DNA of 64,000 nt, taken from positions 28,848 through 92,847 of IMG/VR virus record IMGVR_UViG_3300021962_000055, one strand, 5' to 3'. The notes beneath the pieces are model-generated. The model saw only the letters and a program-made list of their open reading frames with translations, did no database searches and had not been told where the DNA came from. Both the position numbers and the translations under genes were made by a program. The DNA is from a virus. Position 1 is the first letter of the stretch, and every line of letters begins with the position of its first letter. Positions 5,556 to 64,000 of the stretch are shown piece after piece.

Positions 5556-7645
5556 TACTTACCTTTGGCCTCTGCCCAGCTAATAGCGGAATGGCAGGAA
5601 ACCTTTAACGGAATCCCGTTGTATGTTACACCATCTCCCATGGAGGACACCAGCTTGTCAAGTAACCTGTCTACCTGGTCTTTTTCTACCAGTACAACTA
5701 GTTCGTCGTGTACCTGTACCAGGATGTTGGCACCCAGTGGGGTTAGGTCGTTATACACATCGACCATGGCTTTCTTACAAATGTCGGCAGCTGACCCCTG
5801 TACAACTGCGTTAACTGCCTGACGCTCTGCCCTAGACCTTAAGGCGGGGTCAGTGGAAACTAGATCGGATAAATGCCTGCGGCGACCAGACAGGGTCTGC
5901 ACATAACCTTTGGCTCTTCCCTCTGCGATCACAGACTGCTTCCACTTGGTGATCCCAGAAAACTGCTTGTAGTACTGGTCGATGACATGGCGGGCATGCT
6001 CTTCATCGATACCCGTGGTGCGAGCAAGTTTCTGCGGGCCACCGCCATAGGCCGTCAAGAAGTTGACGCCCTTACCAAGCTGTCGCTCTTCTGAGGTTAC
6101 TTCGGTAACCGGCTTACCAAGCACCAAGGCGGCAGCACCAGAGTGAATGTCGGCCCCGGTCAGGAAGAACTCACTCATCTTCTTGTCTCCGGAGAACATG
6201 CACATTACACGGAGCTCGATCTGGTCATAGTCGGCAACCAGCAGCTCATACCCCTCAGGGGCAACGAATAGTCCTCTAACGCTACTGTCACGTGGGATGT
6301 TCTGCAGGTTGGGGTTGCTGGACGACAGGCGTCCAGTGGCGGTCCTGTGCAGGTGAAACGACGGGTGCAGTCGGCTCTTGTTTAGCTTCGGGAGCAACCC
6401 ATCAACGTAAGTTGATACCAGCTTTTTGGTTTCAGCCCACTCCAAAAGCATCGGGACAACTGGGTGCTTAGTCTCTAACTTACGAAGTGACTCTTCGTCA
6501 ACTGATGCGCTTCCACCAGGGGTGGTCTTTACTGGCTTAAGCCCTAGCCCACCCTCTCGCTTTTTGTTGAACAGCAGCTGTTGTTTATGCTTTGAACTGT
6601 CAGGGTTAAACCCCGGTGGGGCGTAATCCATCATTGAAACCAGAAGGTCGTTCAGGCGGTTCTCCAACTGTTTGCCAAGCACAGTCATAGACCTCTGGTT
6701 GACTGGAATACCGTTGTCCTCCATCTCCATGAGGACGCGAAGAACTTCCATGTCTTGACGAAGGGAATTGAGAAGTTCTGGTACAGCTACAACCTTGCGG
6801 TACAGCGACTTGTACAAATTCCACGTCCAGCGAACATCTAGGTGTACGTACCGTAGAGCCTGTGTAAATGACGTCTCACTAATGATCGCTCCAAGCTTTC
6901 CATCTTTGTGGTACGCCTTAAACGATTCAAAGTTGTGGGAGATCAGGTGATCCAAACTGTACTCAGACAGGTTCTCATTAAGCACATGCTGTAGGAGCAT
7001 GGTATCCAAGTAGGGGCCCGGGGGAAGGCTTCCACCAAAGTATTTACGTATGGACCTGGCATCAAACTTTACGTTGTGCCCAATCTTAACAATGTCGCTA
7101 AAGAAGATTGGGCGTAGGGCCTCAAATACTTGTGATGGTGAGAGCTGTGGGGGAGGGGGGCTGTATACGGCTGGTTTGTAATACTTGGCTTTGGCCATGG
7201 ACTCTTTACCACTCTTCAAAAGAGCTCGGTATCCAGGTGGTGGAACAGTTGACCCATCACCACGTTCGGCAGGTTCAATGATGCTTCCATTGGGGTGACC
7301 CATTGGAATAGCCCACGAATGTCCCTGGGTAGCAATCCCAATCCAAAATACGTTGTTACGGATTGGGTCTAGCGCCAGGGTGTTGCGCCACCTGTTGGTA
7401 ATGATGTCTTTGGCGCGATTGACAATATCAACATTTGTGGTCTTAAGAGTGGCGACGTGGTCTTTCCACTCCTTTTCAATCCACTGCTGTACATCTGGGT
7501 GCCGCTCTACAGCACCCATCGTCTCAACGTCGAAAGCGAATGCTCCGACGTTTTTTACAACCTCAACGATCTCGTTAAGTTGCTCCACTGTAGTAACGAA
7601 GTGGGGGGCATTGCTGCCCCCCACTCGTGCCGTGATATTGCTCAC
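5555..7645 (-). CDS. polA: family A DNA polymerase with 3'-5' exonuclease domain, no 5'-3' exonuclease
   Basis: DVET, GHNVKFD, TGRLSSSNPNLQNIP, DYDQIELR, KGVNFLTAYG, VHDE. Confidence 0.97.
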   Translation of the reverse strand: MSNITARVGGSNAPHFVTTVEQLNEIVEVVKNVGAFAFDVETMGAVERHPDVQQWIEKEWKDHVATLKTTNVDIVNRAKDIITNRWRNTLALDPIRNNVFWIGIATQGHSWAIPMGHPNGSIIEPAERGDGSTVPPPGYRALLKSGKESMAKAKYYKPAVYSPPPPQLSPSQVFEALRPIFFSDIVKIGHNVKFDARSIRKYFGGSLPPGPYLDTMLLQHVLNENLSEYSLDHLISHNFESFKAYHKDGKLGAIISETSFTQALRYVHLDVRWTWNLYKSLYRKVVAVPELLNSLRQDMEVLRVLMEMEDNGIPVNQRSMTVLGKQLENRLNDLLVSMMDYAPPGFNPDSSKHKQQLLFNKKREGGLGLKPVKTTPGGSASVDEESLRKLETKHPVVPMLLEWAETKKLVSTYVDGLLPKLNKSRLHPSFHLHRTATGRLSSSNPNLQNIPRDSSVRGLFVAPEGYELLVADYDQIELRVMCMFSGDKKMSEFFLTGADIHSGAAALVLGKPVTEVTSEERQLGKGVNFLTAYGGGPQKLARTTGIDEEHARHVIDQYYKQFSGITKWKQSVIAEGRAKGYVQTLSGRRRHLSDLVSTDPALRSRAERQAVNAVVQGSAADICKKAMVDVYNDLTPLGANILVQVHDELVVLVEKDQVDRLLDKLVSSMGDGVTYNGIPLKVSCHSAISWAEAKGK

Positions 7646-13959: not shown

Positions 13960-14293
13960 TTTTGTGGTCCTCATTGTTTTCCGTGTAGGCGTTGTTTACG
14001 ATTTCCCAAAACTCATCGTTGTCCTGTTTACGCTTGTGCAGGACCTTGTTGTGGACCTCAAGCCCCGATTTTGTCGAGAACTGCGCTCCACAATCCGAGC
14101 ACCGGAGCATAGTCTGCCGAGAGCGTAGCGGACGGGCACAGAAGGCATCGGGTGGGATCACTGACTCTAGCGAGTGGTCAAACCAAAGTTCATACTCGTC
14201 AGTGGACTTGAAGTTGTCATGCAACCATTGTACGAACACCAAGATGTCCTCTAGGTTATTAAATACATATCTGTTGCGGTCATCTCTTCCCAT
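13931..14293 (-). CDS. protein with classical C2H2 zinc finger
   Basis: CSDCGAQFSTKSGLEVHNKVLH = C-x2-C-x3-F-x5-L-x2-H-x4-H. Confidence 0.7.
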   Translation of the reverse strand: MGRDDRNRYVFNNLEDILVFVQWLHDNFKSTDEYELWFDHSLESVIPPDAFCARPLRSRQTMLRCSDCGAQFSTKSGLEVHNKVLHKRKQDNDEFWEIVNNAYTENNEDHKNDTAISDPD

Positions 14294-15509
14294 GACTAGC
14301 CCTTCGGTAGTTGTACACCGCTTCCAGGATTGACCCGGCCGCAGGGCGTAGGTTTGTCTTGGAAGGTTTATGTAGTTCTGGTGGAAGTTGAACTGACCCT
14401 ACAGCTGCCTGTAGCTCCAGCAAGTCCCCATCTTCTTCCCCGGCTAGTACCCGTATAAACGAGTTTAGCGCAGACAAAGTACTCCTGAACTCGGGGCTGA
14501 CCACACCTTTGTGAGATGTAATCAAGTCCGCCACAACTTCAGGGTACCGGAAGCAAATGTCCATGCCGTGCATAATCACCGCATGTCGGATTGTGGAGTC
14601 GTTCAGCTCTGGCCAGGGCATGTCAATTCCGTTGCGCTCAAAATCCCCCATGATGAACATCAACGCAGGGTCTTCGACAGATACTTCGGTGTCAACCTGC
14701 TCCATCAACTTTTGCTGAACGCCCTTGTTGGTAAACACCATGATCGGGTTCTCTGCTGTGCGCCAGTGCTCTACGTCCATGAAACGTTTAATCATCTGCG
14801 AAACTGTGAACTCTGTTAACCCAGAATCCCGCAAGGTGTTCAAAGTCTTACGAAGAATGATGATGTCTCGATAGGCGTAGGTGGTCCCCATGATCGACCT
14901 TGGGTCGCTTAAAAACTGGCTGACCAAGTTGGTTACATCCCGTCGGGTTTTCTTTTCTGGGGGCTTGGGGTCAAACGACTTTTCAGGCTTGTCTGGGTCT
15001 GCTCCAAGAATCATAAAATCCTCCAGACCGCTCGCGGTCCTCTTTATGTTTTCAGTATCTATATCTAATATCTCTATTAAAGGGTCCGAGATTTGTGCTG
15101 TTAGCAGGGGTGACTCAGTTTTAGATGGGGTCAGCCGTGACCCATTGATAGGGTCAGCCGTGACCCTATCTACACCCCTGTTTGGGGAGTCAATAGGGTC
15201 AGCAGTGACCCCATCTGGAGCGTTGTAGTTGATCCGGTAAGAGTTGGTGAGGGGCTTGCGATAACGTACAACGGTAACGATTCCCTGCTCCGCCAACCAC
15301 TTAAGAGACCGTTTTACGGTCTCCTTGGAGAGCTCCGAATACTCAGAAATTTGGGCGACGGAGGCGCGCACTTCTTTGGTACGTCGCTCCATGAGCGCAA
15401 CAAGTGAAACCAACAATTGTAAATCTCTGGCGTGCCCAGACTGGCGTATGCGCTCAGTCGCCCATAGGGGGATGGCCAAGAACGGCCCCTGGAACAAGTT
15501 GGTGGTCAT
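14280..15509 (-). CDS. replication initiator-like protein (N-terminal winged HTH)
   Basis: SVAQISEYSELSKETVKRSLKWLAEQGIV wHTH; first gene of loader-helicase-primase operon; internal iterons; start could be up to 15548. Confidence 0.7.
   Translation of the reverse strand: MTTNLFQGPFLAIPLWATERIRQSGHARDLQLLVSLVALMERRTKEVRASVAQISEYSELSKETVKRSLKWLAEQGIVTVVRYRKPLTNSYRINYNAPDGVTADPIDSPNRGVDRVTADPINGSRLTPSKTESPLLTAQISDPLIEILDIDTENIKRTASGLEDFMILGADPDKPEKSFDPKPPEKKTRRDVTNLVSQFLSDPRSIMGTTYAYRDIIILRKTLNTLRDSGLTEFTVSQMIKRFMDVEHWRTAENPIMVFTNKGVQQKLMEQVDTEVSVEDPALMFIMGDFERNGIDMPWPELNDSTIRHAVIMHGMDICFRYPEVVADLITSHKGVVSPEFRSTLSALNSFIRVLAGEEDGDLLELQAAVGSVQLPPELHKPSKTNLRPAAGSILEAVYNYRRASHGKR
15128..15211. repeat. 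three palindromic iterons GGGTCAGC(C/A)GTGACCC, putative phage origin
   Basis: Copies at 15128-15143, 15151-15166 and 15196-15211, next to AT-rich tract at about 15042-15080. Confidence 0.75.
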
Positions 15510-15554
15510 GGGTCGGTGACTGTACAGTATGGAGGGCACCGGATGCAACCATGC

Positions 15555-59342: not shown

Positions 59343-60014
59343 TTACACGGTACCGGTGAACACCCACCTAGTACCGGTACGTAATCCCTTAGAAGTGATG
59401 TTCTTGAACCCAATATCCTGCATCATGCCCTGAACAGCTGCCGGGTTGAATCCCCAGAAGTTTGTATCGTCACTGTTCAACTCATCCTTAATATAGTACC
59501 GAGCTGCTGGGTATGGTATGTCTAACATGTCCACATGGGTCTCGATGACTACTAAACCGTTGGACATGGCCTTGGCCTTCTCTAGGTACCCAATCGGATC
59601 TTTAGCGTGGTAGATAACCCCAAGCATGAGTACGATGTCAAACTTCCCATGCTTCTTAGGACTCAACTCCTCAACAGACGCTACTAACTTCTCTACGTTG
59701 GAGTTCCTGTGCTTCTTGGCAAAGTCGAATCCAGAGTCACCGACTTGAGACCCGTTGTGGATAACTCTTCCCTTCCATACGAACTTGTCGGAAGCGACCA
59801 CTCGGGCCGCATTACGTTGTTCACAAGCAAATGAGTAATACCCATCCCAGGCCCCAATGTCCAGTACAGACAGTCCAGATAGATCTTCAGGTAGTCCTAG
59901 GTTCTCAAAGGTGTTAGGGGCCTCTACGCTCAGCCCATTGGTGGTGTGCTCCCCAATCTGAATGGGGTGCCACCATACGATGGAGTTCATCTCGTCTAGT
60001 GTACTTTGATCCAT
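59343..60014 (-). CDS. class I SAM-dependent methyltransferase (CmoB/DUF1698-like)
   Basis: VLDIGAWDGYYSF, FDIVLMLGVIYH..DP; AGGAGG RBS. Confidence 0.85.
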   Translation of the reverse strand: MDQSTLDEMNSIVWWHPIQIGEHTTNGLSVEAPNTFENLGLPEDLSGLSVLDIGAWDGYYSFACEQRNAARVVASDKFVWKGRVIHNGSQVGDSGFDFAKKHRNSNVEKLVASVEELSPKKHGKFDIVLMLGVIYHAKDPIGYLEKAKAMSNGLVVIETHVDMLDIPYPAARYYIKDELNSDDTNFWGFNPAAVQGMMQDIGFKNITSKGLRTGTRWVFTGTV

Positions 60015-60045
60015 AGATCCTCCTTGTGAATAGGTCTACATTACC

Positions 60046-60399
60046 TTATCCACAGGTGCCCAGTTATCCACAGGTAACCCCCCCCATTTCGAATAGGGCT
60101 ATTACGCAGTGGTGTGTTTATCGGCGGGTGGGTACTGCCCCCGCTCCGGCGACCTGCTAGCGACTAGTGATGGGGGTCACCCCCCACCCCCCACTTAGTT
60201 GTGGGGTGGTGGCATCGGGGTGCGCTAGTCACTAGCGTACCTGATCCTCCCCTGCTAGGCAAGGCGCCTACCGGCCTGGCAGAAGCATCATGGGGACATC
60301 TGTGGTTATCCACAGGGTCAGCCCCCTACCAGTGGTTATCCACAGGGTTATCCACAGGCCTAGCAATGGGTCTATGAGTTATCCACAGGTTTATCCACA
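60046..60399 (+). promoter_or_regulatory. cluster of seven perfect DnaA boxes (TTATCCACA)
   Basis: At 60046, 60064, 60306, 60336, 60348, 60379 and 60391; an inverted copy lies at 61185-61193. Confidence 0.85.
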
Positions 60400-60490
60400 G
60401 AGGTGGGGGCTGGCTAGTCACTAGCATTACGGTGCGCGGAGTTGCTATCTCTCTGTCCAGTGTCCATTCACTACCAGAGAGGGGAACATC

Positions 60491-61132
60491 ATGGCTACCA
60501 TGACCCGCAGCAACATCCAACCGATGACCGACATCGTCGAGGCCTTCAAGGCTGACTACGACAAGGTCGTCGCTGACAACGGCAACGGTGCCGTCGAACT
60601 GTACGCCCGAGGCGTGCTGATTGGCGATGCCGGTGACCTGGTGCGCGACCTCGCGTTCGACCTGGCGAAGCGCTTCGGCGCCACCTGGGGCGAGAGCGAC
60701 GTCGCTCGTGCGTTCGGTCTCAAGACCGCCGCAGCCAAGGTCATGACCGAGACCGTGCGCTACCTGGCCACGCTCACCGATGACGGCACTCCGGCCGTCG
60801 ACGTGCGCAAGGCCGTGTACGCGGTCCACAACCAGACCGGTACCGGTGTGGTCGCGCTGTCCAACTTCCTCAAGGTCAAGGCCTCGAAGTTGAAGGACGG
60901 CAAGACCCTCCCGTACAAGGCGGTGGTCAGCGCATCGGACCACCTCGTCAAGGAGGCCAAGAAGGCGGGCGAAGAGCCCAAGCCCGAGGCCACCCCTGCC
61001 GAGCAGGTCGATGCCATCATCAAGCGCATCGAGCGCGCTCTCAACGACCTCGCCCCCTTCACGGAGGCCGGTTACGAGTTCGCACTCGAGCAGTCGGTCA
61101 AGCTCGCCGCCATCAAGGCGCGCTTGGCCTGA
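60491..61132 (+). CDS. hypothetical early protein
   Basis: GAGGGG RBS; very strong G/C third-position bias; possible HTH (ESDVARAFGL). Confidence 0.85.
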   Translation: MATMTRSNIQPMTDIVEAFKADYDKVVADNGNGAVELYARGVLIGDAGDLVRDLAFDLAKRFGATWGESDVARAFGLKTAAAKVMTETVRYLATLTDDGTPAVDVRKAVYAVHNQTGTGVVALSNFLKVKASKLKDGKTLPYKAVVSASDHLVKEAKKAGEEPKPEATPAEQVDAIIKRIERALNDLAPFTEAGYEFALEQSVKLAAIKARLA

Positions 61133-62038
61133 GAGATGGTGACTCCGCGCATCTAGTGTGACGTGACCGGCCAGCCTCCTCCCCTGTGGATAAGCCGCGC
61201 TAGTGGCTAGCGAGTAGGCCTGATAAGGGCCTGTTTGTAATCCATGGGAATCACATGGGAGGGGTGCTGACCTCTGTGTAACAACGCGCGAACCCCCCAT
61301 CCTGCCAGGCAATACGTAAGCCGAACGGCCCAACCGCAATGTACTCCGGTACGTTGGTCAAGGAGGTATGGCCAAACCAACTTATGTTGGGGGCGCAGGA
61401 TGTGGACGGCCTTCAAGCCTGGGTTGTAAGCCGCGCCCTGTAACCGCAGAGCAAGGGAGTTGGCCTCAGTGCCGGGATATCCCTGTCCCCTACATCAACG
61501 TGTAAGAGTTAGGCCCGCCCAAGTGGTGGGGCGACCACCCCTAAGCAAGGTGGATACTACATCGCCCCCATGAGAGCCACGGGCAGAAGCGACCCCCACA
61601 AGGGGCGCGCGCACGACCCAGCGAGTACACCATACTCGCATGCCGTCCGGTTGTATCCGGGTAAGTCTGGTACCAGGCGGGAGACACTCTGACCACGTTC
61701 ATAAGGGGCCGAGGATGCCGAGGGATTACCCCTCGGTGTCCTCTGCCCCTTCCGACCATTGGGAGCAAGGCCGGTGGGTTGGTGCTAGTCACTAGCCCAC
61801 CGGCCAAGATCTTAGTCAATATTGTAATTGACTAGGACAAGCGGCCATCGCCACACCGGGCAGGCCGCTTGTTTAACCGGGGGCGAGGGTACGCTACTAC
61901 TAGCAACCCTTGCCCCCACCTCTTGGGGAGTCGACCGACCCCCATAAGGCAGCAGGCATACCCCCTATCATGCCAGCGCCATCGGTCCCCTTCTCCCCGA
62001 TGGTTGGAGTGGCTCATGAACCCTTGAAAGGGGAACCC
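61133..62038 (+). ncRNA. candidate large structured non-coding RNA
   Basis: No credible ORF; many hairpins with G-U pairs on the + strand; boundaries uncertain. Confidence 0.5.
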
Positions 62039-62293
62039 ATGAGCAAGTTCCACGTGGAGCACTACGATGTCCTCGGTCTGTTGGGCATCGACCACCTCAT
62101 CTTGAGGTGGGAGTACACAAAGGAAAGGGTCTGCCCGGTCACCGGTGCGCCGGTGGCGTTCGAGCAGGTCCTCGCGGGGCAGTACCACCTGCCCCGCATC
62201 GGTGGCGACTCGGCCAACGGGTACGAAGTGTACCCGACCGAGTCGTACCTCCGCCACCTGGCCGACAAGGTGTCGGCCTTCCTCGCTGACTGA
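62039..62293 (+). CDS. hypothetical early protein (MSKFHVEHY...)
   Basis: AAAGGGG RBS; GC3-rich codons begin at this ATG. Confidence 0.8.
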   Translation: MSKFHVEHYDVLGLLGIDHLILRWEYTKERVCPVTGAPVAFEQVLAGQYHLPRIGGDSANGYEVYPTESYLRHLADKVSAFLAD

Positions 62294-62439
62294 GTCAGCA
62301 CGGTTAGGAGAACCAACCGAGCCACTCCAACCATCAACCGTTCTCGGACAGGCGCGCGTCGCGACTGTGCTGCCGTCCAAACCAATCTGCTCCTAGTGGC
62401 TAGCGGGCCCGTCTTCCTACGACCCTTGAAAGGGGAAAT

Positions 62440-62883
62440 ATGAAGACACACAAGAAGAAGCCCAAGACAGACAACACCATCCGCCGTGAGGCGGAGGTCG
62501 CCCTCTCCAAGTTGGATGGGGCAACCCGCGAGCTGACGGGATCCTCCCAGGAGGAAGCCGACGAGCTGATGGCTCTCCTGCGGGAGTGCCAGAAGCACAT
62601 CAGCGAGATGGAGTTCGTGGCCCGTAAGGGCTACGCCATCATGAAGCGGGCAGAGAAGGCGCTCAAGTTGCCGTCTCTGGAGTTGCCCAGCAAGGCAATG
62701 CCCTTGGCCGACTTCCAGAAGGAAGTCAAGCGCCAGGAGAAGGCATTCAAGCAGAAGGCCACGGAGTCGATGAAGAAGATCGTCGACGCCGACTACGCCC
62801 TTCTCAAGGGCCTCGATGCCGTGGCGGACGCCATCAGCAGCCGTATCACCGAGGCCGCATACCGAGGGTTCGCCCTCAACTGA
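62440..62883 (+). CDS. hypothetical coiled-coil early protein
   Basis: AAAGGGG RBS; GC3-rich. Confidence 0.8.
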   Translation: MKTHKKKPKTDNTIRREAEVALSKLDGATRELTGSSQEEADELMALLRECQKHISEMEFVARKGYAIMKRAEKALKLPSLELPSKAMPLADFQKEVKRQEKAFKQKATESMKKIVDADYALLKGLDAVADAISSRITEAAYRGFALN

Positions 62884-62920
62884 CCCAGACGGGTCCGCTA
62901 GTCACTAGTAGCACACTCCT

Positions 62921-63023
62921 GGTGGGAGCCCTCTTATCCCCCATAAGAGGAGAAGGCGCGGCGCTTACAACCCCCATAAGAGGGGAGGGTGCCGGTGTGG
63001 TTCGACTCCACCTCCCACCACCA
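62921..63023 (+). ncRNA. tRNA-like RNA with non-canonical D and anticodon arms
   Basis: GGTGGGA/TCCCACC acceptor stem plus A-CCA; GTGG-TTCGACT-CCAC T arm. Confidence 0.7.
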
Positions 63024-63035
63024 TGCTAGCCACTA

Positions 63036-63108
63036 GCCCACGTAGCTCAGGGGATAGAGCAACGGTTTCCTAAACCGTGTGTCGCAGGTTCGAATCCTGC
63101 CGTGGGCA
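63036..63108 (+). tRNA. tRNA-Arg(CCU)
   Basis: GCCCACG/CGTGGGC, GCTC/GAGC, ACGGT-TT CCT AA-ACCGT, GCAGG-TTCGAAT-CCTGC; no encoded CCA. Confidence 0.95.
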
Positions 63109-63254
63109 CTCTGGTCAAAAGGCACGAGATGGGGCATCACTCCCCATCGGGACTAACGGGGGCTTGCCACCCGTGAACCAGACGAGTTTATCCGTTCTCG
63201 ACAAAAACGGACAATTCTCCCAGTCCCAGCTAGTCACTAGAGGAGGTGACAACA

Positions 63255-63488
63255 ATGGCAAAAATTACCATCACAACGTCCACCGAGACGCTTCAGTTGC
63301 TGGAGGACATCCTCCAGTCATACGAAAATGCGTTGGACGACCACCTGTACCGCATCTTTCCCGAGTCTTCTACTCGGCAGGCTCAGGGCGACATCGCCAC
63401 CATGCGTGCCGAGATGAACCGAATGATCGGTCAGGCGGAACGCCAGATCGAGAAGACCCGCCCCGACTTGTCGGGAGTCCACGACTAG
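63255..63488 (+). CDS. small hypothetical early protein (MAKITITTS...)
   Basis: AGGAGGTGA RBS fused to CTAG motif. Confidence 0.75.
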   Translation: MAKITITTSTETLQLLEDILQSYENALDDHLYRIFPESSTRQAQGDIATMRAEMNRMIGQAERQIEKTRPDLSGVHD

Positions 63489-63503
63489 TCACTAGGAGGT
63501 GAC

Positions 63504-63743
63504 ATGAACAGCATCCAATTCTCTCTCCCCAATGGGTTCACATTCTCTGTGGCCCAGTGGGGAAAGGTTAAGGAATGCGCCGTTCTCCGGAGCGATGATT
63601 TCGTTCCTCTGGGCGTGTGGTACGCACCAAGCCTTGAAGACGACAGCGTTCTCATTCTCAGTGGGAGCGCAGAAAGCTTGGCAGCGGCCATGGAAAGAGC
63701 AATCGATTGGGCGAAAGACAACGCGCCCAACGCTAGTCACTAG
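63504..63743 (+). CDS. small hypothetical early protein
   Basis: AGGAGGTGAC-ATG. Confidence 0.75.
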   Translation: MNSIQFSLPNGFTFSVAQWGKVKECAVLRSDDFVPLGVWYAPSLEDDSVLILSGSAESLAAAMERAIDWAKDNAPNASH

Positions 63744-63751
63744 GAGGTGAC

Positions 63752-63907
63752 ATGGCGCACATGATGGGCGACAAGCGCGCCCGCAACGAGTGTCCCTGGG
63801 GTTGCTGTTCCGACAGCAAGGCTCAGGGGAAAAGAGGTGCCTACAGGTGGCACCGCATGTTCCGCTCCCGTGAAAAGCGGGAGTGGAGGAAGGAGCAATG
63901 GTCATGA
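63752..63907 (+). CDS. 51-aa basic Cys-containing protein (MAHMMGDKRARNECPWGCC...)
   Basis: AGGAGGTGAC-ATG; not in ORF track. Confidence 0.7.
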   Translation: MAHMMGDKRARNECPWGCCSDSKAQGKRGAYRWHRMFRSREKREWRKEQWS

Positions 63908-64000
63908 GAACCAAGCGCAAGGCCCGAGCCATCGGGTCGGATCGGTGGGGCACCATCTACCGATACGGCCTTTACGAGGACATGGACATCCTCCAGCAGG
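63904..64000 (+). CDS. hypothetical protein, truncated at window edge (MRTKRKARAIG...)
   Basis: AAGGAG RBS, ATGA overlap, open to the edge. Confidence 0.6.
   Translation, partial: MRTKRKARAIGSDRWGTIYRYGLYEDMDILQQ

Follow-up and report, generated by a model that had tools for sequence, protein, structure and literature searches.

A conserved array of perfect DnaA boxes at the early strand switch of an uncultured phage, a possible docking site for host DnaA

Introduction

Arrays of DnaA boxes in the early DNA of phages have been known in T5 since 1987, and their function is still not agreed upon. T5-like phages have about eight consensus or near-consensus boxes, arranged in pairs with a 3-bp gap and located in the first-step-transfer DNA (Heusterspreute 1987, as cited in Davison 2020, bioRxiv 10.1101/866236). 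Membrane-associated DnaA has been proposed at the T5 injection stop signal (bioRxiv 10.1101/866236). The T5 record shows two box pairs spaced 12 bp start to start (9437/9449 and 9498/9510) and, in the divergent pre-early promoter gap, perfect boxes at positions 6121 and 6194.

DnaA is also a transcription factor, which autoregulates dnaA and stimulates the lambda promoter pR. The datA and DARS elements, which are specific to E. coli, combine a box cluster with a site for IHF or Fis, and the orientation of the boxes drives ATP hydrolysis or nucleotide exchange; we know of no comparable element in actinobacteria. Stable binding of E. coli DnaA in vivo prefers, or needs, co-oriented boxes with a gap of 2-3 bp (PMC11317965). 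Here, a DnaA-box array in the early DNA of an uncultured phage is described and compared with these systems. The window referred to throughout is the whole stretch of DNA that was analysed, 64,000 nucleotides in length.

Results and Discussion

The phage and its putative host

The window comprises the last 64 kb of an IMG/VR record of 92,847 bases. The first and last 197 bases of this record repeat each other, which gives a genome of about 92.65 kb that is either circular or terminally redundant. The gene set is that of a myovirus (tail sheath, baseplate, portal, large terminase, family A DNA polymerase and helicase). A megablast search for a cultured close relative returned zero matches, and no deposited phage has a polymerase more than 36% identical to the one encoded here. 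Two WhiB genes, both scoring above the Pfam cut-off, point to actinobacteria as the probable hosts of this uncultured phage. Dps, followed in a protein atlas as a further host lead, matched viral clusters only.

From position 60014 of the window down to position 1 nearly all genes are on the minus strand, the first of them being a SAM-dependent methyltransferase gene (59343-60014). The plus-strand early arm begins at 60491 and continues across the contig ends. G+C content is about 61% at the start of this arm (window 60000-64000, genome 1-4000), compared to about 50% elsewhere in the genome and 43-48% in the related phages; the arm probably came from, or became adapted to, another background. 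The first early gene (60491-61132, plus strand) encodes a protein of 213 aa without a family assignment. Neither Pfam nor PHROG searches gave a match to this product and there were no homologues among viral contigs; four homologues were found, all on short metagenomic contigs. The methyltransferase gene and the first early gene are separated by DNA without a convincing gene, and this non-coding gap at the strand switch is referred to below as the hub.

Perfect DnaA boxes at the strand switch

The sequence-only reading of the window had reported seven perfect, co-oriented copies of TTATCCACA in 354 non-coding bases, and these are all present, on the plus strand at 60046, 60064, 60306, 60336, 60348, 60379 and 60391. 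The successive start-to-start spacings are 18, 242, 30, 12, 31 and 12 bp, which include the pairs at 12, 12 and 18 bp described earlier. Nine copies of TTATCCACA occur in the 64-kb window against an expectation of 0.57, a number that none of 100 shuffles reached, and a genome-wide count, suggested with the original observation as a check, gives eleven in the whole 92.8-kb record. The minus strand of the window carries copies at 61185 and 59756. The latter falls within the methyltransferase ORF and has no counterpart in the relatives, and so may be a chance occurrence. The former (box 8, 61185-61193) is the eighth, inverted box that had been said to bracket the first early gene; it does so, and it belongs to a 72-bp inverted repeat that is treated further below.

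All eight hub copies are perfect and fit the 9-mer consensus TTATNCACA, the best form of which is TTATCCACA; copies with one mismatch are absent from positions 59900-61400. The box is extended to TTATCCACAGG in seven of the eight. Box identity was judged against the universal consensus, from which the preference of the host lineage itself may differ. High-GC actinobacteria favour the box TTGTCCACA, a variant that shows no enrichment in the window phage.

The boxes fall into a left-hand pair and a right-hand cluster. Boxes 1 and 2 (60046-60054 and 60064-60072, plus strand) consist of TTATCCACAGG twice, 18 bp start to start, and are the pair conserved in the phage family. Box 3 (60306-60314, plus strand) stands singly, 30 bp before box 4, and has a helical phase of 0.0 relative to the right-hand cluster. 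Boxes 4 and 5 (60336-60356, plus strand) form a double box, TTATCCACA GGG TTATCCACA, with a gap of 3 bp, and boxes 6 and 7 (60379-60399, plus strand) form another with the same gap. The pairs 60336/60348 and 60379/60391 are double boxes as defined by Stringer, Fitzgerald and Wade in 2024 (co-oriented, with a gap of 2 or 3 bp), a definition that leaves out the conserved pair 60046/60064 with its gap of 9 bp. The five boxes of the right-hand cluster have phases of 0.00, 0.86, 0.00, 0.95 and 0.10 turn, all within 0.14 helical turn, and share one face of the helix.

The window array is real and conserved, and it is of a kind already known from T5 and many other phages. With T5 the window phage shares a lytic lifestyle, replication genes of its own, about eight boxes in non-coding early DNA, co-oriented pairs with a 3-bp gap and inverted repeats. 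The T5 boxes are placed in a terminal repeat of 10 kb, with one mismatch in half of the boxes, whereas those of the window are all perfect; the window phage moreover differs in having no visible long terminal repeat and, most probably, an actinobacterial host. Like E. coli datA and the DnaA-box clusters of B. subtilis (PMC2533591), the hub has dense, strong boxes in intergenic DNA outside the origin, but the array is phage-borne, with boxes at set distances from a second motif. In a scan of viral contigs, the perfect double box with a 3-bp gap was found in at least 119, and the densest clusters held 23 boxes in 500 bp. An unrelated viral contig of 35% G+C (L060, 12862-13362) has 23 perfect copies of TTATCCACA within 500 bp.

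A conserved module of boxes and a second motif

Relatives were sought with the methyltransferase as an anchor and then with a box-free piece of the hub, and a metagenome scan for the conserved block described below gave one more. With near-identical contigs counted as one (L187 with L186, L184 with L188), six related contigs were obtained: L184, L185 (the same as L130), L187, L189 (the same as L129), L202 and L210. Among these, L184 (G001) is a complete genome of 92.5 kb, L185 (G002) is 81% complete, and L202 is a contig from Lake Mendota that was binned with a Novosphingobium MAG. Three other relatives of the methyltransferase (L131-L133, 66-68% identity) are non-syntenic and were set aside as uninformative on the boxes.

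It had been pointed out that an absence of the boxes from relatives would speak against a function, and the opposite is seen: all six related contigs have three to five perfect boxes in the same module, which holds four of the five boxes of G001 and five of the six of G002. Conserved block 1 (60026-60140, plus strand), as delimited by alignment with the six contigs, reads AATAGGKCTA, seven bases, box, seven bases, box, a C-tract, the motif again in the form AATAGGGCTATT, and a conserved tail. AATAGGKCTA occurs four times in the window against 0.40 expected, and three of the four copies are in the hub and co-oriented, on the plus strand. Copy 1 (AATAGGTCTA, 60029-60038) lies 7 nt before box 1, a position conserved in the relatives, and copy 2 (AATAGGGCTA, 60092-60101) is part of the best-conserved block of the hub. 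Copy 3 (AATGGGTCTA, 60365-60374) is located between the double boxes 4/5 and 6/7 and has CCTAG directly before it.

The spacing within this module is rigid. The three hub copies of the motif are also found at the same positions in L184, L185, L187, L189 and L202; relative to copy 2, the boxes of the relatives start at -45 and -27 and copy 1 at -62. The two-box pair keeps the same distances to the flanking motifs in L184, L187, L188, L189 and L210, while in L185 and L202 exactly one 18-bp unit is missing but both box-to-motif distances are retained. Copy 3 is found 273 nt downstream of copy 2 in the window and 280-307 nt downstream in the relatives, preceded by CTAG (mostly CCTAG) and about 100 nt before the first early gene. 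Around this copy the window phage has five boxes, compared to none to two in the relatives. The window phage is an expanded version, with five boxes added independently in a diverged, GC-rich arm. In the six phages, all 27 hub sites are the exact consensus 9-mer and the information content falls sharply at its borders, although the flanks show some preference, with G at +10 in 24 and at +11 in 21 of the 27.

The DNA between the conserved blocks is not alignable between relatives, and the genes on both sides of the hub differ from phage to phage. Since the module is conserved while flanking genes and spacer differ, selection acts on the sites and their spacing rather than on the neighbouring genes. 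In the window, the variable GC-rich spacer (60141-60300) contains hairpins and two CTAG-N3-CTAG palindromes (60157 and 60225). The contigs L186 and L210 both end inside this spacer, 60-115 nt past the conserved block; the spacer may be hypervariable in populations and break assemblies.

The first early mRNA and the promoter search

The 72-bp inverted repeat consists of a 5' arm (60388-60459, plus strand), identified by inverted-repeat search, and a 3' arm (61125-61196, plus strand) that overlaps the stop codon of the first early gene. The duplex of the two arms is predicted to be more stable on the sense strand (-110.9 kcal/mol) than on the antisense strand (-86.9 kcal/mol), with nine G-U pairs in the former versus two in the latter. 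When the whole 809-nt stretch is folded to minimum energy, 61 bases of the 5' arm are paired, 60 of them with the 3' end. The same feature is present in G002 (L185 49-239 and 917-1032), around a different first gene, with 97 pairs and eight G-U pairs in the sense versus two in the antisense strand. By these predictions, the 5' and 3' untranslated ends of the first early mRNA seem to be joined in a helix of 64-97 bp, perhaps a site for RNase III or a device that protects the ends. Box 7 is situated within the 5' arm and box 8 is its pairing partner at the RNA level. An Rfam search matched no family apart from a tRNA. In G002, two perfect boxes form a local palindrome (box, 15 nt, inverted box; L185 1065-1097) about 30 nt ahead of the mRNA helix.

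Since the sense-biased helix starts at 60388, the early transcript probably begins there or before, and thus at or before box 7, with a predicted start near 60385; boxes 3-6 would consequently surround the promoter, and box 7 would be part of the leader. This arrangement resembles that of DnaA-regulated promoters in E. coli (PMC11317965), where tandem co-oriented boxes with a 3-bp gap occur near transcription starts; those promoters typically have fewer boxes than the seven or eight of the hub, and the promoter position in the window is a prediction from the helix. A scan for sigma-70-type promoters and terminators found none in the hub. A sigma-28-type element, GCCGATAA at 60118, was dropped, as it showed no enrichment. 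AATAGGKCTA was likewise considered, and rejected, as a general promoter: copies outside the hubs sit in unrelated, coding-like contexts and look like chance occurrences. Within the hub, two copies are followed by a box within 4-7 nt; here the motif may mark promoters, the box spacing after these two copies being a typical occlusion position. The distance from copy 3 to the mRNA start is not constant, since in G002 this copy is part of the transcribed helix arm.

Origin hallmarks and the replication genes of the phage

The sequence-only reading had seen no clear AT-rich unwinding element in the region, and indeed no 20-mer of the hub exceeds 70% A+T, the 95th percentile of the window. Runs of at least three DnaA-trios ([T/A]A[G/A] triplets) are absent from both strands of 59950-60520. 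Cumulative GC skew has no turning point at the hub and is uninformative as an origin marker. The hub resembles oriC and its basal unwinding system in having tandem, co-oriented, perfect boxes followed by a GC-rich stretch (60400-60412), but differs from it in lacking DnaA-trios, an AT-rich element and a neighbouring dnaA or dnaN. Nor does it look like an iteron-type plasmid or P1-like origin, the motif copies being 63 and 273 bp apart rather than in tandem; the neighbouring genes have no match to a Rep family and differ between relatives, and there is no AT-rich region.

The phage had also been credited with an origin and a replisome of its own, which is borne out by its initiation genes and polymerase; the initiation set is located 45 kb from the hub. 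An O-like replication initiator gene (14280-15548, minus strand) contains three GGGTCA-N4-TGACCC palindromes (15128-15211) and is the likely origin of the phage itself, as in lambda, where the origin is placed within the initiator gene. Genes for a DnaC-like loader, a DnaB-like helicase, a primase, an SSB and a DNA polymerase complete this picture, and the hub is probably not the main origin of the phage. A DnaA encoded by the phage was considered and rejected: domain IV is absent, and the DnaC-like loader gives the sole Bac_DnaA match, a weak one of the AAA type. The possibility that the segment is a chimeric fragment of a host oriC, raised together with the original observation, was rejected as well, as the motif-plus-box pattern occurs in no bacterial chromosome among species-representative genomes, in which the only family-like match is a mis-binned phage contig.

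Possible functions of the array

The sequence-only reading had proposed that the boxes are bound by host DnaA, serving either as a sponge or as a switch, with DnaA-primed first-round replication as the alternative. It is partly supported: sites for host DnaA are favoured by the perfect consensus, the double boxes with a 3-bp gap, the conservation, and the lack of a DnaA DNA-binding domain in the phage. The choice between sponge, switch and replication is not one that sequence alone can settle, although replication is the least supported of the three. The best reading, which we hold tentatively and at somewhat less than an even chance, is that the array is a docking site for host DnaA that gates the early promoters. 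The repeats would then be high-affinity sites selectively kept in the hub, where the plus-strand arm and the minus-strand block diverge. When the phage DNA comes in, host proteins alone can act on it, and host DnaA would be the only possible reader at this stage. The two double boxes and the conserved 18-bp pair would be occupied by dimers or short oligomers of DnaA, which would most likely modulate the early promoters, so that early expression is tied to the DnaA state of the host. The binding of DnaA, the role of the hub motif as a promoter mark and the direction of any effect are all inferred in this proposal. A DnaA-dependent input into early transcription is favoured by the 3-bp-gap tandems, by the restriction to host proteins and by the locking of the boxes to the motif and the mRNA start. 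Less in keeping with the docking array are the promoter scan, which yields no sigma-70-type promoter in the hub, the failure of the hub motif as a general promoter, the inconstant distance of copy 3 from the mRNA start and the missing enrichment of TTGTCCACA.

The number and quality of the sites would suit titration. Phage genomes that multiply could soak up host DnaA and thereby stop new rounds of host replication or alter DnaA-controlled host genes; all sites match the consensus perfectly, double boxes are the strongest targets in vivo, and the boxes have expanded from three to five in the relatives to eight in the window phage. Eight sites on at least 100 genome copies would, by our estimate, rival the DnaA pool of the cell. 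Yet three to five boxes suffice in the relatives, the boxes are restricted to a single hub and not scattered over the genome, and a sponge has no need of positions fixed to another motif and to an mRNA start. It is this fixed geometry, together with the position around the first early mRNA start, that favours a switch over a pure sponge, which we regard as unlikely, even if the sequence gives no separation of regulation from titration. An auxiliary origin would account for co-oriented, helically phased boxes at the place where transcription diverges. DnaA and a reader of AATAGGKCTA would open the hub for one initial round of replication, ahead of the synthesis of the phage initiator. Plasmid origins with both iterons and DnaA boxes offer a model, and the hub-specific triple motif could act as iterons. 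At the left edge of the hub, the relatives, though not the window phage, also have a box, after which come a GC-rich spacer of 12 nt and a palindromic, AT-rich stretch of 18 nt. DnaA-primed replication is nevertheless the least supported of the earlier proposals because the window hub has neither an AT-rich unwinding element nor at least three DnaA-trios and a full phage initiation set (O-like initiator with palindromes, DnaC-like loader, DnaB-like helicase and primase) lies elsewhere, 45 kb away; with a GC skew that does not turn at the hub, such an origin seems quite unlikely.

An entry or anchoring role by analogy with T5, in which membrane-associated DnaA would hold the first-entering DNA at the box pairs, is suggested by an architecture that matches both the box pairs and the divergent-gap boxes of T5, and by the link of T5 boxes to inverted repeats, which boxes 7 and 8 in the inverted arms recall. 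The inverted arms are, on the other hand, better explained at the RNA level, the ends of the record overlap by only 197 bp with no evident long terminal repeat, and T5 A1 gave no match in the record at E <= 1, in a search run without a positive control. The T5 proposal is itself a hypothesis, and we judge this role improbable. Finally, a protein encoded by the phage might read the repeats and their likeness to DnaA boxes be a coincidence. The conserved word does run two bases further, to TTATCCACAGG; the R1 box of E. coli oriC has the same flanks. Against a phage reader stand the exact universal consensus at all 27 hub sites with the sharp loss of information at the 9-mer borders, the 3-bp-gap tandem, which is the geometry of a DnaA dimer, and the fact that no candidate phage binder was found, all of which make it highly improbable.

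A more elaborate form of the docking array is conceivable, albeit unlikely as it stands, in which DnaA on the boxes and another protein on the three AATAGGKCTA copies jointly choose between co-oriented early promoters, the expansion of the boxes adding a decoy effect. If so, the phage would read the replication state of its host before committing, and the DnaA-box arrays of unrelated phages, T5 included, would share one explanation. The family in any case adds a clean case to these arrays, with a small conserved module, a rigid geometry and a phage clearly able to do without DnaA as its initiator, which shifts the question away from replication and towards regulation or titration. It is less directly testable than T5, because the host is uncultured.

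CTAG palindromes in the early arm

The CTAG-N3-CTAG palindromes of the variable spacer belong to a larger set. Eleven occur in the window against 0.71 expected, all of them in the early arm (60157-63743), and they are entirely missing from the related phages with 43-48% G+C. The copy at 60414 is probably transcribed, as it lies inside the 5' arm of the mRNA helix.
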